Below, piece after piece: positions 3,711 through 51,549 of a DNA stretch of 57,914 nt (positions within the stretch are counted from its first letter, which is position 1; each line of letters opens with the position of its first letter). This stretch comes from Oscillospiraceae bacterium. Lineage in GTDB: Bacteria > Bacillota > Clostridia > Oscillospirales > Oscillospiraceae. A model generated the notes under the pieces. It worked only from the letters and a program-made list of their open reading frames with translations. It was not told where the DNA came from and ran no database searches. The stretch lies in contig SVLU01000013.1 in assembly GCA_015067795.1 (NCBI GenBank), positions 1 through 57,914 of the forward strand, written 5' to 3'. The translations under genes were made by a program, and so were the position numbers.

Positions 3711-3890
3711 TTTCGCGGCCTCCTTTTTTCTTTTAGTTTGCCGCAAAATGATAAAAATATGGCTTTATTTTATCAGCGTTTATAATAATCTTTATATCGT
3801 GTTTTTGCCCTAACATCTCCTTGAAATCCATATTTTCAACTGATTAAGTTTAAATTTAAGGAAAAATTTGCGACTTTTTCTTAATTACAG

Positions 3891-3919
3891 TTGATTTAAA
3901 GTGAATTTTCATATAGAAT
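3891..3919 (+). promoter_or_regulatory. sigma-A-type promoter, TTGATT-17-TAGAAT, inside a conserved 36-bp cassette (copy 1)
   Basis: acagTTGATTtaaagtgaattttcataTAGAATg. A near-identical cassette occurs at 16518-16553. Confidence 0.6.
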
Positions 3920-3996
3920 GTGTTTGAAAGATTTTATGGCTTTTAACCAGCTATACTTCAACAAAGATATCATTGATAAGGAGCATTACGATACCT

Positions 3997-5013: not shown

Positions 5014-5035
5014 TTTTCACAAGGCAAAAAAAGCA

Positions 5036-5065
5036 TCGGCAGAACTCAGTTGAGTTCTGCCGTTA
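5036..5065. terminator. bidirectional terminator between convergent genes
   Basis: ggcagaactcagttgagttctgcc hairpin. Confidence 0.65.
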
Positions 5066-5067
5066 AT

Positions 5068-5892: not shown

Positions 5893-5899
5893 CGTGTTT

Positions 5900-7018: not shown

Positions 7019-7027
7019 GATACACCT

Positions 7028-8065: not shown

Positions 8066-8109
8066 ATTGAGTCCTTTCTGGCTTTGATTAGTACAACGTT
8101 TTGGTTAAA

Positions 8110-10295: not shown

Positions 10296-10309
10296 GAATT
10301 CTACCTCTA

Positions 10310-11182
10310 TCACACTGTATCCATAAAGGTTTTCTCAATTCTGTTAAATAAAACCATGCCAACGAAAAATACAGCTACAGTAAACACTAAACTGATTATG
10401 TAATACAGCGTATTAAAATATCCCTGACCTAAAAATGCCATACGCATTGTTGTAACTATTGGAGTAACAGGGTTTAACATATATAAGCCCAGATACTTCT
10501 CAGGGATAAGCGCCAAACCATAAGGAATCGGTGATAAATACTGCCACAGCTGAAGTCCGAAGCCCACAAGCATGGCAAGGTCACGATACTTTGTGGTAAG
10601 CGAGGAAATGATTATACCCACACCTGTACTGAGCAAAACAAGCTGAATAACCATCACAGGGAATAACAGCATATACTTTGAAAAGCGAATGTGTGTTATA
10701 CCAACCAAATTGCAAACAAGTACGATACCGCAGAACAGCAGTATCTGAATAAAAAATGAGATCAGGTCTGCTATTGCCGTTGCGATTGGTGTAACGATAC
10801 GCGGATAATATACCTTGCCCATAATTGCTCGGTTTGTAATAAAAGTATTGGAATTAGCCGTTACCGTTGATGAGAAATATGACCAGATAACAGTACCGAT
10901 CATATAGAACAGGAAAGACGGCATCTGCAATACTTCACCTTCCACATCTGAGGTGGTAAGTCCTGCCAGGCTGCCGAAAACAATAGAGAACACCACCGTA
11001 GTAAGCAGAGGCTGGATTACAGCCCACAATGGTCCCAGAACGGTCTGTTTATATTTAGCTGTAAAATCTCGCTTCACAAAAAGCCATGTCAGATCTCGGT
11101 ATTCCCAAACCTCTTTAAAGTTTATCTTTACTGCACTTTTCGATGAAGTAATATGCGTTTTCCAGTTTTGCCGTTCCTGCAT
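10310..11182 (-). CDS. ABC-2 type polysaccharide/teichoic-acid export permease (Wzm/TagG-like)
   Basis: Six-TM hydrophobic protein immediately upstream of, and overlapping, the Wzt-like ATPase. Confidence 0.8.
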   Translation of the reverse strand: MQERQNWKTHITSSKSAVKINFKEVWEYRDLTWLFVKRDFTAKYKQTVLGPLWAVIQPLLTTVVFSIVFGSLAGLTTSDVEGEVLQMPSFLFYMIGTVIWSYFSSTVTANSNTFITNRAIMGKVYYPRIVTPIATAIADLISFFIQILLFCGIVLVCNLVGITHIRFSKYMLLFPVMVIQLVLLSTGVGIIISSLTTKYRDLAMLVGFGLQLWQYLSPIPYGLALIPEKYLGLYMLNPVTPIVTTMRMAFLGQGYFNTLYYIISLVFTVAVFFVGMVLFNRIEKTFMDTV

Positions 11183-11205
11183 ATTTCTTTACTCCTTATA
11201 CTTCG

Positions 11206-12390
11206 TTAAATTATTGCTTCCCAACGGTCGGCAATTCTTTCAATACTCAGTTCATCCCGTACTTTGGCCGCCTCGCCGGAAAGGTGCTGAGCCAGAGCGG
11301 GATTTTCAATTATTTCTTTCATTCCGTTATAGAGTGCCTGCACATCCCCGATCGGTGTCAGGATGCCGTTCTTGTGACCACTTATCATCATTCTTGCCCC
11401 ACCACCGTGGCAGTCGGTGCATACACACGGCAATCCAATAGCAAGAGCCTCCAGCATGGAGTTGGACAGCCCTTCAAAATCCGAGCTGCACACATACATC
11501 GCCGCATCTCTTATACGCTCATGGACATCCGATGCAAAATCCTCAAAGAAAACAGACTTTTCCAGTCCTTTTTCCTTCGTCAGGGCAATCAGAGAGTCTT
11601 TTTCCTCACCTCTGCCATAAATTCGCAGAGTATAATCCGGATACTCTGCCAGCAGCATTTCAAACGCGTCAATAAGCAGAGGGATATTCTTCTGCTTATT
11701 CAACCGACAGAAATTTACTATCTCATGCCTCCGCTCCCCTGTAAAGGGCTGTGGTAATCCTTCTTTTAAAGGATTGGGAATTACGGCACTTTCACAGCGA
11801 AGCTTTGTATAATACGCTCTCTCATCCTCTGTCTGGAACACTGCCGCCTTACAGCAGCGGTATATCCCATCACGGATCTTCATGATATTTCGCGGCATAT
11901 CAGGACGAACAGGATTATTTCTTTCGCAGAATACGGTTTTAACAGAAATCCCCTTTGCCGCCATCAGCATTGCGATATTGGAGCGGATCAGGAAGCCAAA
12001 AGCGGTACAGTCTTTGTTGTTTTTCAGATATTCCCGATATGGCAATGCGTAATTTGCGTAGAAATACATTCGGGTTTCGTTAACCTTAGGATAGGTTGTA
12101 CAGCCGAATTTCCGCAAAAGCGGATTTAAGAAACGAACCTGCAGATGCATACACCTGTTCAAAAACTTTCGGGCAAGCTTTCCCCAAGTGGTAGTGACAG
12201 GCATATCCTCAGCTATGTACAGCGTAATACCTTCCGGCAGAGGATATGCAACAGGTCGCCTGTTCAGCATCAGAATATCAATATCATATTCTCTGGAGTA
12301 CAGCTCATTGCTGAGAACGGAAACCACCCGCTCTGCACCCCCGCCGCCAAGAGAATCAATAAAAAACGCAATTTTCTTATTTTTCATCAT
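11206..12390 (-). CDS. GT4-family glycosyltransferase
   Basis: KIAFFIDSLGGGGAERV... The C-terminal ...YVCSSDFEGLSNSMLEALAIGLPCVCTD... is the GT4 motif. Confidence 0.8.
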   Translation of the reverse strand: MMKNKKIAFFIDSLGGGGAERVVSVLSNELYSREYDIDILMLNRRPVAYPLPEGITLYIAEDMPVTTTWGKLARKFLNRCMHLQVRFLNPLLRKFGCTTYPKVNETRMYFYANYALPYREYLKNNKDCTAFGFLIRSNIAMLMAAKGISVKTVFCERNNPVRPDMPRNIMKIRDGIYRCCKAAVFQTEDERAYYTKLRCESAVIPNPLKEGLPQPFTGERRHEIVNFCRLNKQKNIPLLIDAFEMLLAEYPDYTLRIYGRGEEKDSLIALTKEKGLEKSVFFEDFASDVHERIRDAAMYVCSSDFEGLSNSMLEALAIGLPCVCTDCHGGGARMMISGHKNGILTPIGDVQALYNGMKEIIENPALAQHLSGEAAKVRDELSIERIADRWEAII

Positions 12391-13358
12391 TTATTCATCA
12401 TGCACATCAGTTTATTCTGCGCTCTGTAAAAGAGATTTCTCAGTTTGCCGGAACACTTGATCTTCAGCTTCATATCCCCGAACCCCTTATGGGACATTAC
12501 ATCCTTTTTAAACGCTCGATGCTGTCCCTCCAGGCTTTCACGGTCGGTTTCGGACAGAAGATTGTACTTGCCTATCACCGATTTGGCAGTACGAACAAGA
12601 TACATGGCTGCAGCTTCACCCTCAGCCTTTCCGTTTCGATACATTTGGGACAGTACATAGTAAATCCGAAGCATACTGTCATAACGACGCATAGCACCGG
12701 AGGATGTCATAATGGATGCCGGACGTATTCTGCGGGCATAAAGCTGCTCATGGCAGTGTGCCACCCGACCATCAGCGTTATATACCAGGAAGGTAAAAAG
12801 CTCGTCCTCGTGAATGATGCCCTCTTCAAACCACAGGTTATTCTCAAGCAGATAGCTTGTACGGAAGAGCATCAGAGGAACAGCTGTGCGGTACTCTTCA
12901 TTCCGAAGAAGTCTGAGAAGCATCTTGCGACCTGTTTGCGGCCGATACTGCTCTTTTCGGATGTATCTTGATACATTATCATCCTCTTCGCACTCATCAA
13001 AAAATACATAACCATTGAAAAACACAGCATCAGCGTTTTCCTTATCAGACAGTGCTGTCAGATGCTCCAAGGTATGGGGCTCGATGTAGTCATCGCTGTC
13101 CAGAAAATAGACATACTCACCTTTAGCTTCTCTGAGTCCTGTGTTTCTTGCAGCAGATAATCCACCATTTGGTTGATGAATTACCCGTATTTTATCAGAA
13201 ATATTTATATACTCATCACAAATCAAGCCGCTGCGATCTGTTGAACCGTCATCAACCAGAATGATCTCGTAATCTGTGTATGACTGCTTCAATACGCTGT
13301 CAACACATTCGTTTAAGTATTTTTCTACATTGTATACAGGGATAACAACACTTATCAT
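12387..13358 (-). CDS. family 2 glycosyltransferase (first of three tandem paralogues)
   Basis: MISVVIPVYNVEKYLNECVDSVLKQSYTDYEIILVDDGSTDRSG. Confidence 0.8.
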   Translation of the reverse strand: MISVVIPVYNVEKYLNECVDSVLKQSYTDYEIILVDDGSTDRSGLICDEYINISDKIRVIHQPNGGLSAARNTGLREAKGEYVYFLDSDDYIEPHTLEHLTALSDKENADAVFFNGYVFFDECEEDDNVSRYIRKEQYRPQTGRKMLLRLLRNEEYRTAVPLMLFRTSYLLENNLWFEEGIIHEDELFTFLVYNADGRVAHCHEQLYARRIRPASIMTSSGAMRRYDSMLRIYYVLSQMYRNGKAEGEAAAMYLVRTAKSVIGKYNLLSETDRESLEGQHRAFKKDVMSHKGFGDMKLKIKCSGKLRNLFYRAQNKLMCMMNK

Positions 13359-13361
13359 CTT

Positions 13362-14450
13362 TTATCTTCCCCGAGTTTTCTGGTAAATTTTTCTGACTGC
13401 CTGATTTTTAAAGATACAGTTCAGAACAGGTGTAATATATTTCTTCTTCCAGGCCAAGTTTTTCAGATAATGAACCAAGCCTGTCGCATCCTGATTTTTT
13501 ACATAACCATAAACGGCGGTATATTCCGAATTCATACCGGTACAGGAAATGTTTCCCACCGCACTAATGCATAGGGGATCGGTCACAACCTCTCGGATTT
13601 TTTCAATACGCTGTTTATCCTTTGCCAGACGCATTTCGTTGCGGATCACCTGCGTGCAGAAATAGAAGATGCACATCTGCATGGCATTTGTAAAATCGTG
13701 AGCCTCAAATTTTCCGGTAATTTCAACCATATAGGTCATCAGACTGCGAATGGAGTTCCACATATTTTTCGTGTAGGAACGAGACTTGGAGTTTTCGTTG
13801 GGTCGGTAGTGGTACAGTTCACCGGCAGCAAGAACCACATAGGTATCAGCGTGCAGGGCACACTCCACAGAAAACGCAAAATCCTCACACCTGCGGCTTT
13901 TCTCGTAAAACCGGATATTGTTTTCGTGAACCATGCTTCGGCGATAAAGCCGAGAACAGTTTCCCCAGTCAACAGTACGGAATGTGCCAGTCCTTACCAC
14001 ATGGGGCAGCAGTACGGGATAAATCTGCTCACGTATTTCTTCTCCCCGGTAAACGCCTTCCGGGAATACCACATAATCCGCAAGACCTTCCATCCTGCAA
14101 TAAATGATATCTGCACCCGCCTTCTTTGCCGCCCTGTACATGGTTTCAAACATATCCGGTTCGATCCAGTCATCAGAATCCACAAAGCCGATATATTCAC
14201 CGCGAGCATGAGTTAAACCCACATTTCGTGCAGATGCCGTACCGCCGTTTTCCTTATAATAATACTCAAAATTTGGATGTGAAAGTATAAAATCTTTACA
14301 TATCTGACCTGAAGTATCTCTGGATCCATCATCAATCAGCAAAACCTGTATATTACCCAGCGTCTGGGCTGCTATGCTTTCCAGGCATTCTATTAGATAT
14401 TTTTCAATGTTATAGACCGGGACAATCACACTGACTTTCGGTTCCATCAA
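13362..14450 (-). CDS. family 2 glycosyltransferase (tandem paralogue)
   Basis: VSVIVPVYNIEKYLIECLESIAAQTLGNIQVLLIDDGSRDTSG. Confidence 0.8.
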   Translation of the reverse strand: MMEPKVSVIVPVYNIEKYLIECLESIAAQTLGNIQVLLIDDGSRDTSGQICKDFILSHPNFEYYYKENGGTASARNVGLTHARGEYIGFVDSDDWIEPDMFETMYRAAKKAGADIIYCRMEGLADYVVFPEGVYRGEEIREQIYPVLLPHVVRTGTFRTVDWGNCSRLYRRSMVHENNIRFYEKSRRCEDFAFSVECALHADTYVVLAAGELYHYRPNENSKSRSYTKNMWNSIRSLMTYMVEITGKFEAHDFTNAMQMCIFYFCTQVIRNEMRLAKDKQRIEKIREVVTDPLCISAVGNISCTGMNSEYTAVYGYVKNQDATGLVHYLKNLAWKKKYITPVLNCIFKNQAVRKIYQKTRGR

Positions 14451-15496
14451 TTACTCCTCTGTATGTATTTTTTAATTCTCACAAGGAATTCAACTGTTTT
14501 TTTCACAATTTGCAGGATTAAAAACTGCTTTTTCAGAATCAGCTGACCCATTAGCATATAATATTTGCAGATATAGGCTTTATCCCGCTTCTGCCACAAT
14601 TCCCGGAAGAATGGATCATCGGAAACCTCACTTAGCACCTGCAGCCACCGTTTACGATCCGGCTGATGCTCCGCCAGCAGAACGCCAAAGATCATATTGA
14701 TCCTGCCCTGCATTATCCGGTGGATCTTCTCCTCTTCAAAGCCCCATTTTTTCAAATATTCATCAGTACGCTGATAGACTGTACGGTAGGCATAATAGTA
14801 ATCCGGACGAATATTTCTGGAAATACTGGCGGGATTCCAACGGTAAAAGTACAAAGACTCTTTCAGATATGCCACCCGCTGTGCCGCATCCAGAATTGGC
14901 AGGGTCTGAAACAAGTCTTCTGCCAGACCATTGACCAGGGAATCCTTCCACCGGCTGTAGTCCTCATCCATATCCACGATTTTGCGGGACACAGCTTTAA
15001 TAACAATTGGATTAAGCCCTTTTCCAAGCAAAAACTTATTATAAAGCTCCTGCTTTTGTTCCCCCTGAAATATATAGCCACTTGGGTGATCAAATAAAGA
15101 TATCCGTTTTCCTGCTCCAACTGTTCTTTCGAAGGCATAAAAATACTCGTATATAACCATATCTGCATTTTTTTCTTCGATCATGTGCCGTATCTTTTTC
15201 AGCCCATCCACATCGTTAAGAGCATCATCCGAATCAAGGCATATAAAATAATCACCTCGTGCTTCCTGAAACCCTCTTCTGCGAGTCATCATTAAGCCTT
15301 CGTTCTGCTTATGTATCACTCTGATATTTGAGTGCTCTTCTGCATATTCATCACAAATGCGTGGTGAATCATCCGTAGAACCATCGTCAATCAGAACAAT
15401 TTCAAAATCTCTAAAAGTCTGAGAAAGTACAGAATCCAAGCATTCCCTTAAATACTCTGACGTATTATACACGGGAATACAAACACTAAACATCAT
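14447..15496 (-). CDS. family 2 glycosyltransferase (tandem paralogue)
   Basis: FSVCIPVYNTSEYLRECLDSVLSQTFRDFEIVLIDDGSTDDS. Confidence 0.8.
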   Translation of the reverse strand: MMFSVCIPVYNTSEYLRECLDSVLSQTFRDFEIVLIDDGSTDDSPRICDEYAEEHSNIRVIHKQNEGLMMTRRRGFQEARGDYFICLDSDDALNDVDGLKKIRHMIEEKNADMVIYEYFYAFERTVGAGKRISLFDHPSGYIFQGEQKQELYNKFLLGKGLNPIVIKAVSRKIVDMDEDYSRWKDSLVNGLAEDLFQTLPILDAAQRVAYLKESLYFYRWNPASISRNIRPDYYYAYRTVYQRTDEYLKKWGFEEEKIHRIMQGRINMIFGVLLAEHQPDRKRWLQVLSEVSDDPFFRELWQKRDKAYICKYYMLMGQLILKKQFLILQIVKKTVEFLVRIKKYIQRSN

Positions 15497-15509
15497 TTAT
15501 CAATACCTC

Positions 15510-16082
15510 TTAGTTCTTAGAAGCTTCTCTGGCCGGAATACCGATTATCACCTTACCGGGATTTGGAAAGTCTTTATTCACCACAGCGTTTGCTCCAATA
15601 ATGCAGCCATCTGCTATATGAATTCCACCTATAATTACTGCACCTACACCAATATCCACTTTATTTCCCAACGAAGGAATGCCCGTTTCATTACCTTCTC
15701 CTTTATTGCCAAGGATATTGTTGCCATGTATGACACAGTCATCTCCCAGATTAGCGTTAACGACAACTCCACCGTGCCAAATCTGAGTTCTTCTCCCAAG
15801 CTTTGAATGATTTGCTATCTCAACATTCGTTTTTTCACCTAAAATGTTTCGCTTTCTCAAATAATAGCGATACATCATTTTGCCGTAATACTTACGGAGT
15901 ATGTTGGCAGACTCCATCTGCAGTTCTTCTTTATAAAACTGAGCCATTCTGAAAGCTGACAGGTACTTCCAAATCATAAATCTTTTTTGGTGAATAAAAC
16001 TATTGAAGTGATAATTGAAAGGTACATACAACGCTTTTTCTTCGTTGATAATTTCCTTGACCTCTTTCAAATCCATAAACAA
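15510..16082 (-). CDS. hexapeptide-repeat acetyltransferase (serine O-acetyltransferase / polysaccharide O-acetyltransferase-like)
   Basis: Left-handed beta-helix repeats in the C-terminal half (GDDCVIHGNNILG...VDIGVGAVIIGGIHIADGCIIGANAVV). First gene of the minus-strand operon. Confidence 0.75.
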   Translation of the reverse strand: MFMDLKEVKEIINEEKALYVPFNYHFNSFIHQKRFMIWKYLSAFRMAQFYKEELQMESANILRKYYGKMMYRYYLRKRNILGEKTNVEIANHSKLGRRTQIWHGGVVVNANLGDDCVIHGNNILGNKGEGNETGIPSLGNKVDIGVGAVIIGGIHIADGCIIGANAVVNKDFPNPGKVIIGIPAREASKN

Positions 16083-22555: not shown

Positions 22556-22825
22556 GTAAAAAATAAAGGCAGCGATGGAGATAGTATCGTGGCAATCGCA
22601 TTCACAGAGAGCTGTTGGTGCTGGGAAAACGGCAATGTCTGTCATGAGAAGCAACACTCCGGAGCCGACGGAAGAAAACCCTTTACAGGTGAGTAGAACC
22701 GTCCGTTGCATCGCGTAAAGATGAAAATGAAGAGGATTGTAATCAATCAATTTGGGTGGTATCGCGGAAGATGTCTTTCGTCCCATGGATGGGCGAATGT
22801 CATCTTCTTTTTTTATTTCATTTTT
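22556..22825 (+). ncRNA. T-box riboswitch leader of aspS, probably with a GAC (Asp) specifier
   Basis: AG-box AGAGAG at about 22603. The canonical T-box sequence AATTTGGGTGGTATCGCGG is at 22749-22767 and runs straight into the terminator hairpin gaagatgtc...gacatcttc plus a T-run at 22767-22814. A GAC triplet sits in a plausible specifier position (ccGACgga). Confidence 0.85.
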
Positions 22826-22886: not shown

Positions 22887-24650
22887 ATGTTAAGAACACA
22901 CACTTGTAATGAGTTGACCCTGAACCACATCGGCGAGACCGTAACACTCACCGGTTGGGTAGATACCGTTCGTGACCACGGCGGTGTTATTTTCGTTGAC
23001 CTGAGAGACCATTTTGGTGTTACACAGGTCGTTCTCTCTGATGACAGCCTCATTAACGGCATCAGCAAGGAAACCGTTGTTCTCATCGAAGGTAATGTTA
23101 CCCGCAGAGATGAAGAAACCATCAATCCAAAGATCGCAACAGGCATGATCGAGGTTCGTGCTGACCGTCTTGAGGTTCTTGGCCCAAGCCAGCAGTCCCT
23201 GCCTTTTGAAATCGACAATTCCACACAGACCCGTGAAGATGTACGTCTTAAGTACCGCTTCCTCGATCTGCGTAATCCAAAGATCCACAAGAACATCGTT
23301 CTTCGTTCCCAGGTTCTCAGCTATCTGAGAAGCCAGATGGAAGAAATGGGCTTCATGGAGATCCAGACACCTATCCTCACAGCTTCTTCCCCCGAAGGTG
23401 CTCGTGACTATCTGGTACCAAGCCGTAAGCACAAGGGCAAATTCTACGCTCTTCCACAGGCTCCACAGCAGTTCAAGCAGCTTCTGATGGCATCCGGCTT
23501 CGACCGTTACTTCCAGATCGCTCCATGCTTCCGTGACGAAGACGCACGTCAGGATCGTTCCCCCGGTGAATTCTACCAGCTGGACTTTGAAATGGCATTT
23601 GCAACTCAGGAGGACGTTTTTGAGGTAGCTGAACAGGTTATCTATAACACCTTCAAGAAGTTCACCGATAAGGAAATCTCCGCACCACCTTTCAAGCGTA
23701 TTCCATTCAACGAAGCAATGCTGAAGTACGGCACAGATAAGCCTGACCTTCGCAACCCACTTCTCATTCAGGACCTTACCGAATTCTTCGGCAAGCACGA
23801 ATTCCTGTACTTCAACGGCAGAACTATTCCTTTCAAGAACAAGCTGGTTCGCGGTATCGTTGCCAACTACCTTGTAAAGAAGGACGGCAAGAAGGCATTT
23901 GAAAAGGACATCGACGCATATTCCAGAAGCATCGGTATGCGCTTCGGCGTTGGTTATATCACCCTTGAAAACGGCGAATACAAGGGTCCTATCGCAAAGT
24001 TCCTTACAGAAGAACAGAAGGCTGAGCTTACTGAGCTTGTTGGCATCAAGGATGGCGAATCTCTCTTCTTCATCAGCGATACTCCTGCTGTTATCAACCA
24101 GCTTGCAGGTCAGATGAGAACATGGATCGCAAATGAGCTGAACCTCATCAATAAGGATGCATTTGAATTCTGCTATATCGTTGACTTCCCAATGTACGAA
24201 CGCAACAGCGAAACAAACAAGATCGACTTCACCCATAACCCATTCTCCATGCCACAGGGCGGTATGGACGCTCTTCTCAACAAGGATCCTCTTGAAATTT
24301 TTGCTTACCAGTACGACATCGTTTGCAACGGTATTGAGCTGTCCTCCGGTGCTGTTCGTAACCACAACCCTGAAATCATGAAGAAGGCATTTGAAATTGC
24401 CGGCTACGGCGAAGAGGATGTTAAGGCTAAGTTTGGTGCTCTGTATACCGCTTTCTCTTACGGTGCTCCTCCACACGCAGGCATGGCACCGGGCGTTGAC
24501 CGTATGATCATGCTCCTGGCAGGAGAAGAAACCATCCGTGACGTTATCGCATTCCCACTTAACGGCAATGCTCAGGACGTTATGATGGGTGCTCCCGGCG
24601 AAGTAACCGAACAGCAGCTGAGAGAAGTTCATATCAGAGTCAGAGACTAA
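22887..24650 (+). CDS. aspS: aspartyl-tRNA synthetase, probably non-discriminating since gatCAB follows
   Basis: The 587 aa product has an N-terminal OB-fold anticodon-binding domain and class II aaRS motifs (FRDEDARQDRSPGEFYQLDFE; GAPPHAGMAPGVDR). Confidence 0.95.
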   Translation: MLRTHTCNELTLNHIGETVTLTGWVDTVRDHGGVIFVDLRDHFGVTQVVLSDDSLINGISKETVVLIEGNVTRRDEETINPKIATGMIEVRADRLEVLGPSQQSLPFEIDNSTQTREDVRLKYRFLDLRNPKIHKNIVLRSQVLSYLRSQMEEMGFMEIQTPILTASSPEGARDYLVPSRKHKGKFYALPQAPQQFKQLLMASGFDRYFQIAPCFRDEDARQDRSPGEFYQLDFEMAFATQEDVFEVAEQVIYNTFKKFTDKEISAPPFKRIPFNEAMLKYGTDKPDLRNPLLIQDLTEFFGKHEFLYFNGRTIPFKNKLVRGIVANYLVKKDGKKAFEKDIDAYSRSIGMRFGVGYITLENGEYKGPIAKFLTEEQKAELTELVGIKDGESLFFISDTPAVINQLAGQMRTWIANELNLINKDAFEFCYIVDFPMYERNSETNKIDFTHNPFSMPQGGMDALLNKDPLEIFAYQYDIVCNGIELSSGAVRNHNPEIMKKAFEIAGYGEEDVKAKFGALYTAFSYGAPPHAGMAPGVDRMIMLLAGEETIRDVIAFPLNGNAQDVMMGAPGEVTEQQLREVHIRVRD

Positions 24651-24664
24651 GAAAGGAGCTATCT

Positions 24665-24946
24665 ATGGATAGAGAAGCTTTACGCAGACTGGAAAAGCTT
24701 AACCAGCTGCAGCTGAATGATGAACAGAAAGAAGATGTACTGGCTTTCTTTGCAGACCAGTATGACCGTATCGATAAGCTGTCCGCCATCGACACAGAAC
24801 AGGTGGAACGCATGGTACACGTAATGCCGATCTTCACGGTAGTACGTGATGACGTTGCCGTTCAGCCTTTCACTCGCGACCAGCTCCAGAAGGATGCTCC
24901 CGAGACAATGGATGGCTACTGGCAGGTTCCAAGACTTGTTGAATAA
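24665..24946 (+). CDS. gatC: Asp/Glu-tRNA amidotransferase subunit C
   Basis: 93 aa at the operon position between aspS and gatA. The small acidic, helical protein is typical of GatC. Confidence 0.85.
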   Translation: MDREALRRLEKLNQLQLNDEQKEDVLAFFADQYDRIDKLSAIDTEQVERMVHVMPIFTVVRDDVAVQPFTRDQLQKDAPETMDGYWQVPRLVE

Positions 24947-24969
24947 GTCCTTTTGAAAGGAAGATTCTT

Positions 24970-26175
24970 ATGAGATTATATGTAAATGAAAGTTCTAAGG
25001 CTGACGGCAAGCGTGTAGTGCTGGACGATATGCTCCTGACAACCGACCTGCCAACCACCGCAGGCTCTAAAATGCTTGAAAATTATGTAAGCCTTTTTGA
25101 AGCTGATATTATCAGCAAGCTGAGAAACGCAGGCTACTCCGTCTGCGGCAAGGCAAATATTGGTGAATTTGCAATCGACCTGCTGGGCGAAACATCCTGG
25201 TTCGGTGCCTGTGTCCGTGAGGACGGCACTCTCACCAATGCTTCCGCTGAGATTTTAGCAGACGACTCCATTGACGCTGTCATCTGCCTCGATGTAAACG
25301 GTGCACCAAGACGTGCTGCCGCTCTCGCAAACCGCGTTTTTATCAAGCCAACCTACGGCACAGTTTCCCGCTATGGCACTATCCCTGTTGCCTGCTCCGG
25401 TGAAACCGTCAGCGTTATGGCAGCAAGCACAGCAAAGTGCCGTGAGGCTCTTTCCGCTATCGTTGGTCATGACGATAAGGACGGCACAAGCCTTTCTGAA
25501 GCACAGTGTGCTCTTCTCAAGTCCGATGCTGAACGTAAGGCAGTAAAAAAGGTTGCTCTCGCTTCCTCTCTCACAGCTTCCGCCGACGAAGAGACAAAGG
25601 CAAAGATCAATGCTTTCCGTGCTTCCCTTGAAGCTCAGGGCATCACAGTAACCGAAATTGACGATCAGCTCCTTGGGGCTGCAAATACCGCATGGAACGT
25701 CCTGATGGCTGCCGAGCTTTGCAACAACGTATCCCGTTATGAGGGCGTTAAGTTCGGCTATCGTTCCCCTAACTACACAAACATCGACGAGCTGTATACA
25801 AACAGCCGTACCGAAGCTTTCGGTGATCTCCTCAAGACCACCATCCTGTTTGGCTCAGATGTGCTTTCCACCGACAATTACATGAAGATGTACGACAAGG
25901 GTCTCAGAGTTCGCAGAGTCATCTCCGAAGCATTTGCCGGTATTTTCAAGGAATATGATGCAGTTCTGATGCCTGCCTGTTCCAAGTGCAGTTATTCCGA
26001 AGCTGATGTTAAGGCAAACAAGTATATCGCATACGAAGAGAACGTTTACACAGCACCTGCTTCCATCACAGGTCTGCCTGCTGTTGTAGTGGGCGGTGTA
26101 CAGCTTGTGGGTGCTCCATTCTCCGACAACAGCCTGCTTGATGCTGCCGAAATCTACGAAAAGGAGCATAAGTGA
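24970..26175 (+). CDS. gatA: GatA-like amidotransferase subunit A paralogue: truncated (401 aa rather than about 485) and lacking the amidase-signature catalytic motif
   Basis: It retains DLPTTAGSKMLENY (the Lys of the triad) and KPTYGTVSRYG. The region that should read GGSSGGSAAAVA....GSDTGGSIR instead reads ASAEILADDSIDAV...LDVNGAPRRAAAL. About 45 N-terminal residues are also missing. Confidence 0.75.
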   Translation: MRLYVNESSKADGKRVVLDDMLLTTDLPTTAGSKMLENYVSLFEADIISKLRNAGYSVCGKANIGEFAIDLLGETSWFGACVREDGTLTNASAEILADDSIDAVICLDVNGAPRRAAALANRVFIKPTYGTVSRYGTIPVACSGETVSVMAASTAKCREALSAIVGHDDKDGTSLSEAQCALLKSDAERKAVKKVALASSLTASADEETKAKINAFRASLEAQGITVTEIDDQLLGAANTAWNVLMAAELCNNVSRYEGVKFGYRSPNYTNIDELYTNSRTEAFGDLLKTTILFGSDVLSTDNYMKMYDKGLRVRRVISEAFAGIFKEYDAVLMPACSKCSYSEADVKANKYIAYEENVYTAPASITGLPAVVVGGVQLVGAPFSDNSLLDAAEIYEKEHK

Positions 26176-27611
26176 TGAGTAAGTACGAAACCGTAATCGG
26201 CCTGGAAGTTCATGTTGAGCTTGCCACCGAATCGAAAATTTTCTGTTCCTGTTCCGCAAAGTTTGGTGCAGAACAGAACGATCACGTCTGTCCTGCCTGC
26301 TGTGGTATGCCGGGTATGCTCCCTGTAACCAACAAGCGTGTTGTTGACCTGGGCGTTACCGCAGGTCTGATGCTGAACTGCGATATCAACCGTGTTACCA
26401 CCTTCGACAAAAAGAGCTATTACTATCCTGACCTCCCCTGCTCCTATCAGACAACTCAGTGGTTTGCTCCTGTCTGTGTGAACGGTACAGTTACCATCGA
26501 GACTTCCAAGGGCAAGAAGGACATCCGCATTAAGCAGATCCATATGGAAGAAGATGCAGGCAAGCTGGTTCATGACGACTGGACCGACACCTCCCTTGTT
26601 GACTTCAACCGTACCAGTGTTCCTCTTATCGAGATCGTCAGCCAGCCTGACCTCTCCAGTGCTGAGGAGGTTGTAGCATACCTGGAACGTCTCCGTTCCC
26701 TTCTCCGTTTTGCAAAGGTTTCCGACTGCCGTATGGAACAGGGCTCCATGCGCTGTGACGTAAACCTCTCTGTACGTCCTGAGGGTAGCGATATTCTCGG
26801 TGTCAGAACCGAAATGAAGAACATGAACTCCCTGTCCGCTATTGAACGTGCTATCGAATACGAAACAGCAAGACATATCGACGCTATTGAACGCGGTACC
26901 GAAGTTCTTGTTCAGGAAACTCGCCGCTGGGACGACATCAAGGGCAAGAGCTACGCTATGCGTAACAAGGAAACCGCAGGCGACTATCGCTACTTCCCTG
27001 ATCCTAACGTAATGCCTATCGTTATTGACGACGAATGGTTTGCAAAGATCACATCCACAATTCCCGATCTCCCTGAAGTTAAGAAGCAGAAGTACATCGA
27101 AAACCTGGGCCTCAGCGAATACGATGCTGACCAGCTTGTTCAGAGCAGAGCTTTCTGCGATTGCTTTGAAGCTGCTTATGCTGAATGCGGCATGGCTAAG
27201 GACGTTGCAAACTGGGTTATCTCCGACTGTGCAAATATGCTGAACAAGAAGCAGATGACTGCTGATATGCTCACCATCGACGGCAAGGCTCTCGGTCAGC
27301 TTATAAAGCTCGTTGCAGACGGTAAGGTCAGCCGTGCAAACGCAAAGAAGATCCTTGCAGTTATGTTCAACGAAAACATTGATCCTGCAGCTTACGCCGA
27401 GGCTAACGGTCTTATCGTTTCCAACGACACAGGCAAGATCAAGGATGTCATCAGAGGCGTTCTGGATGCAGATCCAAAGTCCGTTGCTGACTATAAGAAT
27501 GGCAAGGAAAAAGCTCTCATGGCGCTCTTCGGCAAGTGTATGCGCGAGCTTAAGGGCAATTGCGACCCACAGCTTCTTAGAAGCTATCTCCTTGAAATGA
27601 TCAATCAGTAA
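26175..27611 (+). CDS. gatB: Asp/Glu-tRNA amidotransferase subunit B
   Basis: YETVIGLEVHVEL...CSC....C..C.G.PG..P at the N-terminus. The C-terminal YqeY/GatB tail is present. The ATG overlaps the gatA stop. Confidence 0.95.
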   Translation: MSKYETVIGLEVHVELATESKIFCSCSAKFGAEQNDHVCPACCGMPGMLPVTNKRVVDLGVTAGLMLNCDINRVTTFDKKSYYYPDLPCSYQTTQWFAPVCVNGTVTIETSKGKKDIRIKQIHMEEDAGKLVHDDWTDTSLVDFNRTSVPLIEIVSQPDLSSAEEVVAYLERLRSLLRFAKVSDCRMEQGSMRCDVNLSVRPEGSDILGVRTEMKNMNSLSAIERAIEYETARHIDAIERGTEVLVQETRRWDDIKGKSYAMRNKETAGDYRYFPDPNVMPIVIDDEWFAKITSTIPDLPEVKKQKYIENLGLSEYDADQLVQSRAFCDCFEAAYAECGMAKDVANWVISDCANMLNKKQMTADMLTIDGKALGQLIKLVADGKVSRANAKKILAVMFNENIDPAAYAEANGLIVSNDTGKIKDVIRGVLDADPKSVADYKNGKEKALMALFGKCMRELKGNCDPQLLRSYLLEMINQ

Positions 27612-27666: not shown

Positions 27667-28701
27667 TCAGTATATCATTTCGTGGTTGATGCTTCTGTTT
27701 ACAAACCGTGATAGCTGTTTTTCATCCAAATCCAGGGCACACCCCAAAAGTGTCTTTACATAAGCCATCTCATTTGTCACACCGCTTATGTGATATGCCC
27801 CCGCCCTGAGAATATCACCTGTGGACTCATATTTATATGCGTCAGGTCTGCACGGAGCGAGGAAAAGCTGAACTCCTACAGATTTACAGCGGTCCAGGAG
27901 ATACAGTATCGAGGAGCTTGAATACGCTCCCGCTCCTCCCTTGCGTTCAACGCATACGGTGTCTGAGTGATAAGTGCCGTGGACTATGGCACGAATTCCG
28001 GTAAGGCTGAAAGCCGCATAATCAATACCCACATAAGGCATTATCCTCATAACGCATGGGAGTAGTGGTTTCATTTTATTCAGATAAAATGTCCCTGTCT
28101 CATAAGCTTTCCCCTGAAGCTTTGCATTATTTGCATCAGTCACGATCATGGCATCAGCACTGAAGAAATCGTCACTGAAATTAGCACACTGCAGCAGATG
28201 TGAACCGTAATGGGTATAGATGACACCATCGCTGTTTCTGTAAACCGCGTAGACATTCGGAGCGATATTGTTCATGATCAGCTCGACAGACGCCCGGAAA
28301 TTGGCGTGTCCGTTGGTATTTTCATAATTTAGCGGAAGCTGGCTGGATACCAAGCAAACAGGAATATGAACACCGGCAAGAACTATCGACAACAGCGAAG
28401 CAGTATAGGCAAGGGTATCAGTACCGTGGAGAATGATGATACCCTGATATGCGTTCCAATCTACCTGATTTAGTAAAGCATCAAGGAGGATATTCCATGT
28501 TTTAACGGTCATGTTCTCGCTCAAAATATCCGTGGGCATTATCACATCAAAATGCACCCTGCCGGCAAAAGGAGAGTTTCCTCTTTCAAATCCGTCAATT
28601 ATATGCACGTTGGCGGCATCGGAATAACGCTGACCAAATGCATCGGTAGACGCACAGATTGTGCCGCCTGTAAGTATTACAAGGATTTTCTTATCGCTCA
28701 T
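27667..28701 (-). CDS. L-asparaginase family protein (type I / AnsA-like)
   Basis: The N-terminal KILVILTGGTI matches the asparaginase Thr nucleophile motif TGGTI, and HGTDTL is also present. The start is placed after a GGGAGGGG ribosome-binding site. Confidence 0.75.
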   Translation of the reverse strand: MSDKKILVILTGGTICASTDAFGQRYSDAANVHIIDGFERGNSPFAGRVHFDVIMPTDILSENMTVKTWNILLDALLNQVDWNAYQGIIILHGTDTLAYTASLLSIVLAGVHIPVCLVSSQLPLNYENTNGHANFRASVELIMNNIAPNVYAVYRNSDGVIYTHYGSHLLQCANFSDDFFSADAMIVTDANNAKLQGKAYETGTFYLNKMKPLLPCVMRIMPYVGIDYAAFSLTGIRAIVHGTYHSDTVCVERKGGAGAYSSSSILYLLDRCKSVGVQLFLAPCRPDAYKYESTGDILRAGAYHISGVTNEMAYVKTLLGCALDLDEKQLSRFVNRSINHEMIY

Positions 28702-28854
28702 AGCATCCCCTCCCATGTATATTGTAATTATAACCAACCGGCCAGACTAAAACAAGCTTTTCCTACCTTAATCTGTTCCATTTACATTAAAGTAGCAAAA
28801 ATATGGATAATATGATATATTGTTGTTAGTATGTCCCGAAAGGAGAATTCCAAC

Positions 28855-47854: not shown

Positions 47855-47892
47855 TAGAGCTAACTGATTGATTAAGTCAGTTAGCTCTTTAA
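47855..47892. terminator. bidirectional terminator
   Basis: agagctaactga...tcagttagctct. Confidence 0.65.
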
Positions 47893-47987
47893 TTATTGAT
47901 AGTGAAATTTTGTTGCCATTTCGTTGCCACGAATGGCTCAAATCCTTAAAAAGTCCGGTGATGACTGGGCTTTTTCGACCTGCGGGA

Positions 47988-48968
47988 TCACTCCCACTCA
48001 ATAGTGCCGATAGGCTTTGGAGTGATGTCCATAACCACGCGGTTGATGCCTTCCACCTCATGGGTGATACGGTCGGTAATATGGTGCAGGATTGGATATG
48101 GGATTTCTTCGATGGTAGCTGTCATAGCGTCCACAGTGTTTACTGCACGGAGGATAGCAGGCCAGCCTTCATAACGCTTGCCGTCGCGAACACCAACGCT
48201 CTTGAAATCAGGAACAGCGATGAAATACTGCCATACCTTTTCGGCAAGGCCGTTCTTGTCAAATTCTTCACGGAGAATTGCATCAGCTTCACGCAGTGCG
48301 TGGAGACGATCTCTTGTGATAGCACCGAGGCAGCGTACACCAAGACCGGGACCTGGGAATGGCTGACGGTATACCATGCCGTGCGGCAGGCCAAGAGCTT
48401 CACCAACGACACGAACCTCGTCCTTATACAGAAGCTTTACAGGCTCAACAAGCTGCATTTCCATTTCTTCAGGCAGACCGCCAACATTGTGGTGTGCCTT
48501 AACGCCATCGGACTCGATGATGTCAGGATAAATTGTACCCTGTGCAAGGAAGGAGATGCCCTCCAGCTTTGCGGACTCTTCATCAAATACCTTAATGAAT
48601 TCTTCGCCGATGATCTTACGCTTGCGTTCTGGTTCAGCTACGCCAGCCAGCTTGTCCAGGAAGCGGTCGGTTGCATCCACATAAATAAGGTTTGCGTCCA
48701 GTGCCTTACCGAAAACTTCGATAACCTGTTCACTTTCACCCTTACGCATAAGACCGTGGTTTACATGAACACAGACGAGCTGCTTACCAATAGCCTTAAT
48801 GAGCAGAGCTGCAACAACGGAAGAATCAACACCACCGGACAGAGCCAGCAGAACCTTCTTATCTCCTACCTGATTGCGTACAGCCTCTACCTGCTCGGCA
48901 ATAAAAGCCTGCGCCAGTTCATTATTAGTAATGCGTTCCATTGTTTCCGGACGTTTGTTGTTTTCCAT
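47988..48968 (-). CDS. guaA: GMP synthase, ATP-pyrophosphatase/synthetase subunit only (GuaA C-terminal half, like archaeal GuaAB subunit B); no glutamine amidotransferase domain is encoded here
   Basis: P-loop SGGVDSSV, plus the dimerisation domain. The start has a strong AGGGAGG ribosome-binding site, and upstream intergenic DNA leads directly to purF. Confidence 0.8.
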   Translation of the reverse strand: MENNKRPETMERITNNELAQAFIAEQVEAVRNQVGDKKVLLALSGGVDSSVVAALLIKAIGKQLVCVHVNHGLMRKGESEQVIEVFGKALDANLIYVDATDRFLDKLAGVAEPERKRKIIGEEFIKVFDEESAKLEGISFLAQGTIYPDIIESDGVKAHHNVGGLPEEMEMQLVEPVKLLYKDEVRVVGEALGLPHGMVYRQPFPGPGLGVRCLGAITRDRLHALREADAILREEFDKNGLAEKVWQYFIAVPDFKSVGVRDGKRYEGWPAILRAVNTVDAMTATIEEIPYPILHHITDRITHEVEGINRVVMDITPKPIGTIEWE

Positions 48969-49043
48969 TGTAATGCCTCCCTTAATTTCTATGTAAAAAT
49001 ATTAAACAATAATCAGATAATTATACGCTTCCCTGTGAAATTA

Positions 49044-50471
49044 TTATTCTTTTCCGTCCCAGCAGTAGGTGCAGAGCTTGCATTTGTCAATACCGATAGC
49101 CTCAACAGCACCCTCAAGAGACTGGAATTCAAGAGATGCGAAATTGAACTTATCACATATAGCCTGACGCATTCTCTTGCCGCGTTCCGTGGAAGCGTCA
49201 CTGTATTCATCAATATACTTAAGTCCTTCTTCACCCTCAAGTTCAACAATAGTCTTGCGTGTGATAAGCTCCATTGGGCTGGTTGCACGGGAGAAGTTGA
49301 GATATTTGCAGCTATACATAATAGGTGGACAAGCAGAACGCATATGAACAGACTTCGCACCATTGTCATACAGGAATTCTACTGTTTCCTTAAGCTGTGT
49401 GCCTCTAACGATGGAGTCGTCAACGAACAGCAGATTTTTGCCTTCGATGAGCTCGTGAATAGCTATCTGCTTCATCTTTGCAACCTTATTTCTATCCCTC
49501 TGGTTGGTAGGAGTGAAGCTTCTTGCCCATGTTGGGGTATATTTAATGAAAGGACGTGCAAACGGAATACCGCTTTCATTTGCGTAGCCAATAGCATGAG
49601 GTGTGCCGGAATCAGGAACACCGCTTACATAGTCAATATCCGCTGCAGTCTTACTCTCAGCATCAGCCTTTGCCAAAATGCCGCCATTGCGATAACGCAT
49701 GGTTTCGACATTTTTACCTTCATATGTGGAGTTTGGATAGCCGTAATAGGTCCAGAGGAATGCACAAATACGCATTTCTTTTCTTGGCGGAAGAATTTCA
49801 CTAATGCCGTCGGCTGTAATTTCAACTGTTTCGCCGGGGCCCAGCTCCTTTACGGTCTCATATCCCAGCTTCTGGAATGCGAAGGATTCAAAGGATACGC
49901 AATGACCGTCCTTGGACTTGCCGATGATAACAGGCAGACGACCATAGCGGTCGCGTGCCGCGATAATACCGCCGTCATCCTTGAGAATAAGGATGGATGC
50001 TGTACCGTCGATGGAGTCCTGTGCAAACCTGATACCATCTGCAAATGTACTCTTTCTGTTGATAAGCGCCGCAACAAGCTCAGCGGAATTGACCTTACCG
50101 CTTGTCATGGCATTGAATTGACCTGTACCGAAATCCAGATTGTGCTGGATAAGCTCTTCCGCATTATTGATAACGCCTATGATGCAAATTGCATAGGTGC
50201 CGAGATTGGAGCGCATCAGCAGTGGCTGTGGATCATAGTCGCTGATACAGCCGATTGCGGAATTACCGCTCATCTCGTCAGTAATTCTTTCAAACTTTGT
50301 TCTGAATGGAGAGTTCTGAATATTGTGGATGTCACGCTGTAAGCCAAGTCCTTCAGCGTCATAAGCAGCCATGCCGCCTCTTCTTGTGCCAAGGTGAGAA
50401 TGATAGTCTGTGCCGTAAAATACGTCGGAAACTGCATCTCGTTTACTTGCTATTCCGAAAAATCCGCCCAT
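49044..50471 (-). CDS. purF: amidophosphoribosyltransferase (PurF) with Gly in place of the N-terminal Cys nucleophile
   Basis: Starts MGGFFGI where the canonical sequence is MCG(I/V)(V/F)G. It has a PRTase domain and a C-terminal Cys cluster (CKLCTYC). A GGAGGA ribosome-binding site lies 5 nt upstream of the ATG. Confidence 0.8.
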   Translation of the reverse strand: MGGFFGIASKRDAVSDVFYGTDYHSHLGTRRGGMAAYDAEGLGLQRDIHNIQNSPFRTKFERITDEMSGNSAIGCISDYDPQPLLMRSNLGTYAICIIGVINNAEELIQHNLDFGTGQFNAMTSGKVNSAELVAALINRKSTFADGIRFAQDSIDGTASILILKDDGGIIAARDRYGRLPVIIGKSKDGHCVSFESFAFQKLGYETVKELGPGETVEITADGISEILPPRKEMRICAFLWTYYGYPNSTYEGKNVETMRYRNGGILAKADAESKTAADIDYVSGVPDSGTPHAIGYANESGIPFARPFIKYTPTWARSFTPTNQRDRNKVAKMKQIAIHELIEGKNLLFVDDSIVRGTQLKETVEFLYDNGAKSVHMRSACPPIMYSCKYLNFSRATSPMELITRKTIVELEGEEGLKYIDEYSDASTERGKRMRQAICDKFNFASLEFQSLEGAVEAIGIDKCKLCTYCWDGKE

Positions 50472-50659
50472 AGTTTTCCTCCATTATGTATCTGATAAAA
50501 AACTTTTTGCAAATACATTATACGCAAAGAGTGTCTGAATTTCAATGAATAGTCTTACCAAATTTATGGAATTATTTGATTTAAATTTTGTAGTTTTAAA
50601 GAAATGTTCTTTCGCTCAGTAACCAATCGTACAGCATAATAAATTTAACAAAAAATGTA

Positions 50660-50689
50660 TTGATATTCTGTGGGTTCTGATAGTATAAT
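50660..50689 (+). promoter_or_regulatory. promoter of uppP (TTGATA-18-TATAAT)
   Basis: TTGATAttctgtgggttctgatagTATAAT. Confidence 0.5.
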
Positions 50690-50721
50690 GTGTCAGAATG
50701 ATTTTTTATATGGAGATTTGT

Positions 50722-51549
50722 ATGGACATTATTGAAATAATCAAAGCCATAATTCTGGGCATCGTTGAGGGCATTACCGAATGGCTTCCAATCAGCAGCA
50801 CAGGACACATGATCCTTGTGGACGAATTTTTAAAGCTGAATGTCTCAGCGGAATTTTTGGAAATGTTCCTTGTTGTAATTCAGTTTGGTGCAATTTTAGC
50901 TGTTATCGTCACTTTCTGGAACAAGCTTTTTCCTTTCACCTTCAAGGGCGGGTTTGGAATTAAAAAAGAAACCTTTAATATGTGGTTCAAGGTCATTGCT
51001 GCCTGCTTGCCTGCCGCTGTTGTGGGACTCCTTTTCGATGACAAGCTGAATGAGCTGTTTTACAATTACCAGACAGTTGCAATTACCCTTATCGTTTTCG
51101 GTATCGCTTTTATTCTCATTGAAAACTACAACAAAAGCAAAACCCCTGTGATTAATGATATCCCTTCCATAACCTACAAAACCGCTCTTATCATCGGTCT
51201 TTTCCAGCTTATTGCCGCAATCTTCCCGGGCACTTCCCGCTCCGGTGCTACTATCCTTGGTGCACTTCTTATCGGTGTATCCAGAACTACTGCCGCTGAG
51301 TTTACATTCTTCCTTGCTGTTCCAACCATGCTGGGTGCAAGTCTTTTGAAGCTTGTGAAGTTCGGACTTGTCTTTACCGCACAGGAGGCTGTACTGCTTA
51401 TCACAGGCATGGCGGTTGCATTTGTGGTTTCCATGGTAACCATTAAATTCCTGATGGGATATATCAAGAAGCACGACTTCAAGTTCTTCGGCTGGTACAG
51501 AATTATACTGGGCTGTGTCGTTGTGGTGTATTTCCTGCTGGCTAATTAA
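50722..51549 (+). CDS. uppP: undecaprenyl-diphosphate phosphatase
   Basis: N-terminus ILGIVEGITEWLPISSTGHMIL. The central region PGTSRSGATILGALLIGVSR. These are the BacA/UppP motifs. Confidence 0.9.
   Translation: MDIIEIIKAIILGIVEGITEWLPISSTGHMILVDEFLKLNVSAEFLEMFLVVIQFGAILAVIVTFWNKLFPFTFKGGFGIKKETFNMWFKVIAACLPAAVVGLLFDDKLNELFYNYQTVAITLIVFGIAFILIENYNKSKTPVINDIPSITYKTALIIGLFQLIAAIFPGTSRSGATILGALLIGVSRTTAAEFTFFLAVPTMLGASLLKLVKFGLVFTAQEAVLLITGMAVAFVVSMVTIKFLMGYIKKHDFKFFGWYRIILGCVVVVYFLLAN

Follow-up and report, generated by a model that had tools for sequence, protein, structure and literature searches.

The purF* gene

The 57 914-nucleotide contig SVLU01000013.1 of an Oscillospiraceae bacterium (assembly GCA_015067795.1), the whole of which is referred to here as the window, carries a gene for a paralogue of amidophosphoribosyltransferase (PurF) that has glycine at the position of the catalytic N-terminal cysteine. 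This gene and the protein family to which its product belongs are designated purF* and PurF*. PurF, a drug target, catalyses the committed step of purine synthesis, which depends on glutamine and is under feedback regulation. It consists of a glutaminase domain of the N-terminal nucleophile (Ntn) type and a type I phosphoribosyltransferase (PRTase) domain. The features of purF* and its product are as follows.

49044..50471, minus strand: purF*, coding sequence for a 475-residue PurF paralogue without the Ntn cysteine
50545..50517, minus strand: sigma-70-like promoter, TTGAAA-17-TATAAT, 11/12 matches, about 45 nt upstream of the purF* ATG
50486..50484, minus strand: in-frame TAA, fifth codon upstream of the ATG
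50482..50477, minus strand: ribosome-binding site GGAGGA, followed by the 5-nt spacer AAACT before the ATG
50471..50469 and 50468..50466, minus strand: ATG and the Gly2 codon GGC, Gly2 being aligned with the Cys1 nucleophile of canonical PurF
50392..50408, minus strand: codons for D22-Y23-H24-S25-H26-L27, a PurF*-specific motif in place of LQHRGQ
49396..49422, minus strand: codons for V350-D351-D352-S353-I354-V355-R356-G357-T358, the phosphoribosyl pyrophosphate (PRPP)/ribose-5-phosphate motif of type I PRTases
49149-49259, residues about 405-441: PurF*-specific insertion of about 26 residues relative to canonical PurF, predicted helical, immediately preceding the CxxC Fe-S ligands
Residues 1 to about 230 of the product: Ntn glutaminase-like domain, degenerate
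Residues about 231 to 475 of the product: type I PRTase domain with four Fe-S cysteine ligands, C236, C388, C467 and C470

The N-terminus of the protein, as read from the open reading frame (ORF), is MGGFFGIASKRDAVSDVFYGTDYHSHLGTRRGG. The initial annotation of this DNA had described the MGGFFGI start, the GGAGGA sequence 5 nt before the ATG and the lack of room for an alternative start; all of these were found as described. An earlier start, or a cysteine-bearing propeptide in the style of Bacillus subtilis, is moreover impossible because of the in-frame TAA five codons upstream. Alignments to canonical PurF likewise bore out the placement of glycine at the Cys1 position and the divergence of the QHRGQ-like region, where HSHLGT of the window protein is aligned with LQHRGQ. 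The interval 50380-50760, searched for leader elements, gave zero Rfam matches, whether at the gathering threshold or at E<=1; the leader is a short one without a riboswitch.

Residues of the glutaminase site

Forty-one diverse PurF* sequences were aligned with B. subtilis PurF (1AO0) and with canonical PurFs of related Clostridia, and the alignment was cross-checked by profile-profile comparison. Residues of the glutaminase site are given below in E. coli numbering, the one used in the established PurF literature. At the position of Cys1 the family has Gly, Ser, Thr, Ala, Lys or Asp (Gly2 in the window protein), and Arg26 is replaced by Leu in 32 of the 41 members (Leu27). The glutamine loop containing Arg73, Tyr74 and Thr76 has undergone a deletion of 7-8 residues, the positions that remain being occupied by Ser77-Asp78. 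Asn101 of the oxyanion hole corresponds to Ile98, and Asp127 to Ser129, in the window protein, and both positions vary within the family. Gly102 (G99) is the sole residue kept of the tested glutamine-binding and oxyanion set. Thus, of the four positions singled out in the initial annotation, Cys1, Arg26 and Asn101 are lost by alignment, but Gly102 is retained. Neither an exposed N-terminal cysteine nor the set of glutamine-binding and oxyanion residues that mark a class II amidotransferase was found in the window protein. The glycine N-terminus predicted after removal of the methionine cannot be an Ntn nucleophile, since glycine has no side chain.

The residues lost are matched by others that are newly conserved. 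Among the 41 members, D22 is found in 85%, Y23 in 98% and H26 in 93%; H49, S77, G146, G167, S318, A331, Q359-L360 and W471 are also conserved. Residues 1-25 are among the most conserved stretches of PurF*, and the mean frequency of the most common residue is similar in the N-terminal and C-terminal domains (0.51 and 0.55, respectively), indicating similar constraint. From these patterns the glutaminase chemistry appears to be gone, yet the N-terminal domain is clearly still needed. The initial description of the protein as a PurF with Cys1 replaced was correct as to the cysteine but too narrow, in that the whole glutamine site is gone or remodelled, in a separate paralogue family.

The phosphoribosyltransferase site and relationship to PurF

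The C-terminal half of the protein presents a different picture. The PRPP motif (V350-DDSIVRGT-358) and the pyrophosphate loop (P286-D287-S288) are present and nearly invariant in the family. For the 41 members, in B. subtilis numbering, position 345 of the PRPP motif is D or E, and the other residues are conserved as follows: D346 in 40, S347 in 41, R350 in 40, G351 in 38 and T352 in 37. The flexible-loop residues K305 and R311 (K310 and R317 in the window protein) are each found in 40/41. On these residues PurF* qualifies as a type I PRTase, and its PRTase half is evidently catalytically intact. The Fe-S ligands are conserved to a similar degree (C236 in 40, C382 in 41, C437 in 40 and C440 in 41); C236, C388, C467 and C470 of the window protein align with B. 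subtilis Cys236, Cys382, Cys437 and Cys440. PurF* therefore carries the four ligands for a [4Fe-4S] cluster of the B. subtilis type, the cluster itself being predicted.

The best solved relatives of the window protein are the B. subtilis PurF structures 1AO0 and 1GPH, with E about 2e-43 (residues 3-414 for 1AO0) and an identity of 29% to B. subtilis PurF; the PurFs of Arabidopsis, of mycobacterial length and of E. coli come next. The curated PurF profile TIGR01134 matched at 181.8 bits (E=2.8e-53, profile positions 2-423 of 432), about half the 350-bit cut-off, and this score places the protein outside the PurF equivalog. Pfam GATase_7 was passed narrowly (26.3 bits, cut-off 25), and Pribosyltran was matched weakly, at 17.3 bits against a cut-off of 26.3. 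In profile-profile comparison, PurF* matched canonical clostridial PurF with a probability of 100 and E=2e-70. By these measures the window protein is a clear homologue of PurF, and is not a standard PurF.

An AlphaFold model of PurF* was run on a shallow alignment and used for the fold only, not for the geometry of an ammonium site. It superposed best on 1AO0 and 1GPH, with TM-scores of 0.72-0.75. Its N-terminal domain, which has a predicted local distance difference test (pLDDT) score of 80-96, superposes on the Ntn domains of PurF, GlmS and EgtC, and the Ntn-hydrolase fold is thus retained in the model. NCBIfam was found to contain no model dedicated to PurF*, and the database name of these proteins is 'amidophosphoribosyltransferase'.

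Distribution and phylogeny of PurF*

A scan of one genome per species gave 591 relatives, of which the best 80 loci, from 80 different assemblies, were kept with +/-10 kb around each gene. Among these best 80 of 591 loci, no assembly was represented by a second PurF* copy. With a single exception their labels place them among gut, rumen or caecal Clostridia, with Oscillospiraceae, Acutalibacteraceae, Lachnospiraceae, Ruminococcus and Christensenella-like metagenome-assembled genomes (MAGs) represented; the taxon labels are those of the MAG records, and the sources of the relatives are rumen, caecum, colon and human-gut MAGs. The start MGG[FY]FG is found in 118/120 of the best database homologues (75-88% identical to the window protein) and in the genes of the 80 fetched species genomes.

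These numbers bear on the suspicion that an ordinary purF was misread here, through faulty sequencing or assembly or a wrongly placed start. One G-to-T substitution would indeed convert GGC to TGC, but the suspicion is a prior one only. It is countered by the in-frame TAA and the correctly spaced ribosome-binding site, by the identical N-terminus in 118/120 homologues and 80 independent genomes, and by the loss of at least five further elements of the glutaminase site. An artefact is scarcely credible on this evidence and was rejected; the cysteine-less feature is real and conserved.

A wider search of 1.84 billion cluster representatives returned 8121 clusters at E<=1e-3 and 738 at E<=1e-30, canonical PurF clusters included. 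The N-termini of the full-length top matches are MGGFFG, MSG[LI]FG, MTG.., MAG.., MKAFFG and MDGIIG, and in most of them GTDYHSHLG or a close variant replaces LQHRGQ. In a neighbour-joining tree PurF* is monophyletic with respect to canonical PurF, and its sister group consists of two cysteine-bearing proteins, P0251 and P0256. These keep Cys1 and HRGQ, have Ser/Leu for Arg73/Tyr74 and Ser for Asn101, and share with PurF* a Gln at Thr353; they could represent an intermediate stage in evolution or a further unusual type of PurF. One member, the Ser-type P0132 (L093:4882-6297), is 43% identical to the window protein and lies directly after genes for the large subunit of PolD, with no pur genes nearby on its contig. 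Because P0132 sits on an archaeal contig, beside PolD, the family spans Bacteria and Archaea. Taken together, the sequences argue that PurF* is a deep, separate paralogue family and not a point change in an ordinary PurF.

PurF* in purine operons

The pur-gene context of the 80 species loci was determined by tblastn with a reference set of Pur proteins. In 68/80 the order is purE-(purC)-purF*-purM-purN-purO-purH-purD-purL, with no other purF-like gene in the operon; in 3/80 a canonical purF (EECGVFG...LQHRGQ) is immediately adjacent to purF*, and in 9/80 no pur genes are within reach. In most of the gut and rumen Clostridia that have it, therefore, it is PurF* that fills the position of purF in the pur operon, with no other purF-like gene present there.

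The most telling comparison is with two operons, L099 and L101, that have a canonical PurF in this same slot and are collinear with the PurF* operons L020, L046, L050 and L068. The two sets carry similar labels (Faecalibacterium sp., Acutalibacteraceae, Clostridia). Between them PurC is 85-90% and PurM 81-85% identical, in contrast to only about 30% for the protein in the purF slot. One paralogue has been displaced by the other in place, within otherwise collinear operons, and this displacement is the strongest available argument that PurF* supplies phosphoribosylamine.

The gaps between the pur genes of about 70 loci hold only a channel of the formate/nitrite family, glyA and one GDSL hydrolase; no candidate gene for a glutaminase was found in or next to these PurF* pur operons. 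The only recurrent extra gene is that of the formate/nitrite-transporter family (PF01226, 200-270 residues), located between purM and purN in about ten loci (L024, L044, L050, L055, L058, L064, L068, L070 at 12465-13082, L083 and L089). Its putative substrate is formate, which the channel may import for the formyl groups of the purine ring.

Several clostridial pur operons (L002, L005, L010, L099 and others) encode an archaeal-type IMP cyclohydrolase (PF07826, PurO-like, about 238 residues). The gene adjoins that of a 394-residue PurH with only the AICAR formyltransferase part, no bifunctional PurH being present, and several operons have glyA (serine hydroxymethyltransferase) between purH and purD.

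A separate environmental set of 80 loci was obtained by a metagenome scan seeded with Ser- and Thr-type PurF*. In two of these, L123 and L139, PurF* is alone in the order purB-purL-purF*-purM-purD-purE. Over both sets, PurF* often looks like a companion paralogue in the older branches, and the Gly-type branch of the gut usually took over the operon slot.

The guaA-C neighbour of purF* in the window

The window gene is accompanied by a gene for a GMP synthase that lacks the glutamine amidotransferase (GATase) domain.

47988..48968, minus strand: guaA-C, encoding a 326-residue stand-alone GMP synthase ATP-pyrophosphatase and dimerization domain, with no GATase domain
47856..47888: perfect 14-bp hairpin between guaA-C and a convergent luxR-type gene

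The guaA-C product matched TIGR00884 (guaA_Cterm) at 432 bits and corresponds to positions 193-512 of full-length GuaA, although its database name is 'glutamine-hydrolyzing GMP synthase'. The gap between purF* and guaA-C is 75 nt and contains no terminator; the two genes are probably co-transcribed, and the 14-bp hairpin is likely to mark the end of their transcript. A plus-strand ORF of 824 residues (47868..50342) overlaps both genes. Since the two minus-strand genes have strong homology, this ORF was treated as a shadow, and no family-library search was made of it.

The arrangement of bacA with purF*-guaA-C is also found in a relative whose PurF* is 80% identical (L007, L008; guaA-C at L007:9478-10458), with other neighbours that differ. 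The pairing is also present, independently, in the distant environmental locus L128, where a Ser-type PurF* that is 45% identical to the window protein is followed after 52 nt by a 310-residue GATase-less GuaA-C (8184-9116), and in L131 a GuaA-C lies 3.2 kb downstream of PurF*. Stand-alone GuaA-C proteins of 325-326 residues (further examples are at L095-L098:5001-5981) are very common, and are 89-94% identical across MAGs of Oscillospiraceae, Ruminococcaceae and Lachnospiraceae. No GATase gene was found beside stand-alone guaA-C in the contexts examined, which included three different ones. Within the window, the protein families present gave no second purF and no class I GATase.

Phylogenetically, purF* of the window clusters with six further genes, all located outside pur operons (a clade of about 7 genomes), nested among genes located in operons, and there is no obvious change of rate in this clade. 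In the lineage of the window, purF* has left the pur operon. The pair of genes suggests a small operon for glutamine-independent synthesis of purine nucleotides in the ammonia-rich gut; the GATase-less GuaA could alternatively work with a GATase subunit encoded elsewhere.

Proposed function and alternatives

The interpretation favoured here is that PurF* is a phosphoribosylamine synthase that uses PRPP and free ammonia, not glutamine. This is considered probable, if by no means assured, because the PRTase site appears intact, the Gly-type members have no Ntn nucleophile, and the gene has the genomic position of purF. The rumen, caecum and colon, and the gut at large, are ammonia-rich environments, and use of ammonia there would let the cell save the ATP otherwise spent on glutamine synthesis. 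NH3 or NH4+ would enter through, or bind at, the remodelled former glutamine site, the conserved residues of which (D22, Y23, H24, H26, S77 and D78) may recruit or deprotonate NH4+ where glutamine once bound. Ammonia would then reach C1 of PRPP as it does when E. coli PurF mutated at Cys1 reacts with NH3; according to PMC3261824 (citing Mei and Zalkin 1989), such mutants lost the use of glutamine and kept that of NH3. An ammonia-dependent PurF had been proposed in the initial annotation; it is still the best-supported mechanism, given the PRTase site and the purF slot, but the use of NH3 itself is inferred.

Several observations weigh against an ammonia-dependent synthase. The purF* gene of the window lies outside any pur operon, and its genome may encode a canonical purF elsewhere. 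Canonical purF and purF* stand in tandem in L010-12, L064, L083, L090, L105, L107, L108, L132 and L140; most environmental loci of the Ser-type branch have no pur genes within 8 kb, and about ten have pur genes close by, five or six of them with an adjacent canonical purF of the Cys/HRGQ kind (L105, L107, L108, L132, L140 and L162). The strong conservation of the DYHSH motif at the dead site is not explained by simple loss of function and may point to a different ligand from ammonia. In many distant members position 2 is Ser or Thr, each of which is the nucleophile of some other Ntn hydrolases. The PRTase domain of the AlphaFold model is of low confidence (pLDDT 30-60), and no biochemical or genetic test of any PurF* member was found in the searchable literature.

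Since some genomes keep both genes in tandem, canonical PurF and PurF* are not simply interchangeable. The initial annotation had held that a second canonical purF in the genome, with this copy proving to be a paralogue of different function, would refute its proposal. At the level of the family this is partly the case, in the tandem genomes, but opposing it are the 68/80 species in which PurF* is the sole copy in the canonical slot. The tandem loci would also suit a PurF* that is a non-catalytic or regulatory pseudoenzyme, forming mixed oligomers with a canonical PurF encoded elsewhere and, for example, tuning its feedback inhibition. PurF is active as a dimer or tetramer, which lends itself to such a partnership, and in Crenarchaeota the cysteine-less PurF' always accompanies a true PurF (PMC3261824). 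A partner without catalysis would hardly be expected, however, to keep the PRTase motif, the flexible-loop Lys and Arg and the Fe-S ligands almost invariant in a family only 35-45% identical, or to be alone in the purF slot so frequently, and this explanation is regarded as unlikely.

Somewhat less likely again are two proposals in which the N-terminal domain has some other role. In one, PurF* would still depend on glutamine or another amide, and a glutaminase encoded by another gene would dock on it and supply NH3, in the manner of two-subunit amidotransferases. The strongly conserved N-terminal domain and former active-site region could then be a docking or channel surface, and the neighbouring GuaA also lacks its glutaminase domain, which archaea supply as a separate subunit; but no candidate gene was found in or near about 70 operons, in the window or beside stand-alone guaA-C, and no class II amidotransferase is known to obtain its NH3 from a separate subunit. 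The other proposal, of about equal standing, is that the remodelled site (D22, Y23, H24, H26, S77 and D78) serves a different substrate or nitrogen source and that PurF* is not a phosphoribosylamine synthase. The replacement of the glutamine site by a new, well-conserved motif instead of decay would fit, as would the many distant members away from pur genes, and a Ser or Thr at position 2 could be an Ntn nucleophile. Against this, position 2 is not conserved as a nucleophile, since Gly, Ala, Lys and Asp all occur there, and the exact purF slot with displacement of canonical purF is hard to explain unless the product is phosphoribosylamine.

An extension of the ammonia-dependent reading is put forward tentatively, as a possibility that may well prove incorrect. 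PurF* would be a large, ancient PurF clade in which the glutaminase pocket was rebuilt into an ammonium-capture site (candidate residues Asp22, Tyr23, His24, His26, Ser77 and Asp78) where the former NH3 channel opens, and which replaced glutamine-dependent PurF in much of the gut and rumen Clostridia. With the GATase-less GMP synthase, found both here and in a distant lineage, it would allow both entry to and exit from the purine pathway without glutamine, as an adaptation to anaerobic habitats rich in ammonia.

If PurF* of the gut and rumen does run on free ammonia, both the nitrogen donor and the ATP cost are wrongly set in metabolic models of lineages that are abundant there (Oscillospiraceae, Acutalibacteraceae, Lachnospiraceae and Ruminococcus), and in the gut nitrogen would pass straight from ammonia into nucleotide synthesis. 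The label 'amidophosphoribosyltransferase / glutamine-hydrolyzing' would be misleading for thousands of database entries, and the family would represent a natural experiment in which an Ntn amidotransferase was turned into an ammonia-using enzyme while the dead domain was kept. Enzymologists would be surprised to find a natural, widespread PurF without the cysteine at the committed step of purine synthesis in major commensals of the gut, even though the mechanism could have been predicted from the known behaviour of mutants and the general idea pre-exists for archaea.

Other features of the window

The remainder of the window holds a polysaccharide glycosyltransferase cluster, genes for aspartyl-tRNA synthetase, GatA/GatB and a V-ATPase, and unrelated genes.

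38-111, 1119-1195 and 1243-1326, minus strand: two Gut-1 RNA motifs (RF01706; 50.5 and 77.8 bits) at the window's left end, next to a tRNA gene
1434-16082: 15-kb cluster of GT2, GT4 and GT8 glycosyltransferases, an ABC-2 exporter pair, a TupA-like ATP-grasp protein and a nucleotidyltransferase
22563-22788, plus strand: T-box leader (108.5 bits) preceding the aspartyl-tRNA synthetase gene
22887-27611, plus strand: aspartyl-tRNA synthetase, then a GatA-like amidase and GatB (tRNA transamidation pathway)
27667-28737, opposite strand to GatA/GatB and after them: asparaginase-family gene

The 15-kb cluster is probably a locus for biosynthesis of a cell-wall polysaccharide or a teichoic-acid-like polymer. 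The ORF listed for GatA (401 residues) matches the Amidase profile only from position 53, and its start may lie further upstream.

Comparison with known systems

The closest characterized protein is the [4Fe-4S] PurF of B. subtilis (1AO0, 1GPH), with which PurF* shares the Ntn-fold and type I PRTase domains, the four Fe-S cysteines, the DDSIVRGT motif and the flexible-loop Lys and Arg. It differs, in B. subtilis numbering, in having neither propeptide nor Cys1, in the replacement of Arg26 by Leu, in the deletion of the Arg72/Tyr73/Thr75 loop, in the lack of conservation at Asn102 and Asp127, in the change of Thr353 to Gln and in the insertion of about 26 residues, near residues 405-440 of PurF* itself.

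Two other known systems offer partial parallels. Archaeal GMP synthetase is made up of two subunits, a separate ATP-pyrophosphatase and a GATase; the guaA-C product of the window is equivalent to subunit B (ATP-pyrophosphatase and dimerization), but is bacterial and has no adjacent gene for a GATase subunit in the contexts examined. The beta-lactam and carbapenam synthetases, relatives of AsnB, are natural class II amidotransferase homologues without Cys1, in which the Ntn-fold N-terminal domain no longer hydrolyses glutamine and the synthetase domain is active. They belong to another family with another chemistry, and to secondary metabolism, in contrast to the core pathway of PurF*.

The E. 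coli Cys1 mutants, as summarized in PMC3261824, provide the proposed mode of action, that is, an NH3-dependent PRTase reaction without an Ntn nucleophile. They are laboratory point mutants with a glutamine site that is otherwise intact, whereas PurF* is natural and apparently ancient, with the whole site remodelled and a new motif in place.

In the searchable literature, no description of the bacterial PurF* family or of its takeover of the pur operon was found, and the sole precedent found is the archaeal PurF'. In this crenarchaeal protein the N-terminal cysteine is replaced by Ala or Val; its gene is clustered with purine genes, and it was hypothesized in 2011, as a hypothesis only, to be an ammonia-dependent PRPP aminotransferase (Brown, Hoopes, White and Sarisky 2011, Biol Direct 6:63; PMC3261824). 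As a cysteine-less paralogue of PurF it is the closest concept to PurF*, the comparison being made with PurF' as described there. PurF' always accompanies a true PurF in the genome, in contrast to the bacterial Gly-type PurF*, which is usually the sole purF-like gene of its operon; adjacency to a canonical purF in the manner of PurF' is confined to a minority of PurF* loci and is absent from the window. Because the gene stands alone in the purF slot, the bacterial PurF* would be easy material on which to test the idea put forward for archaea in 2011.

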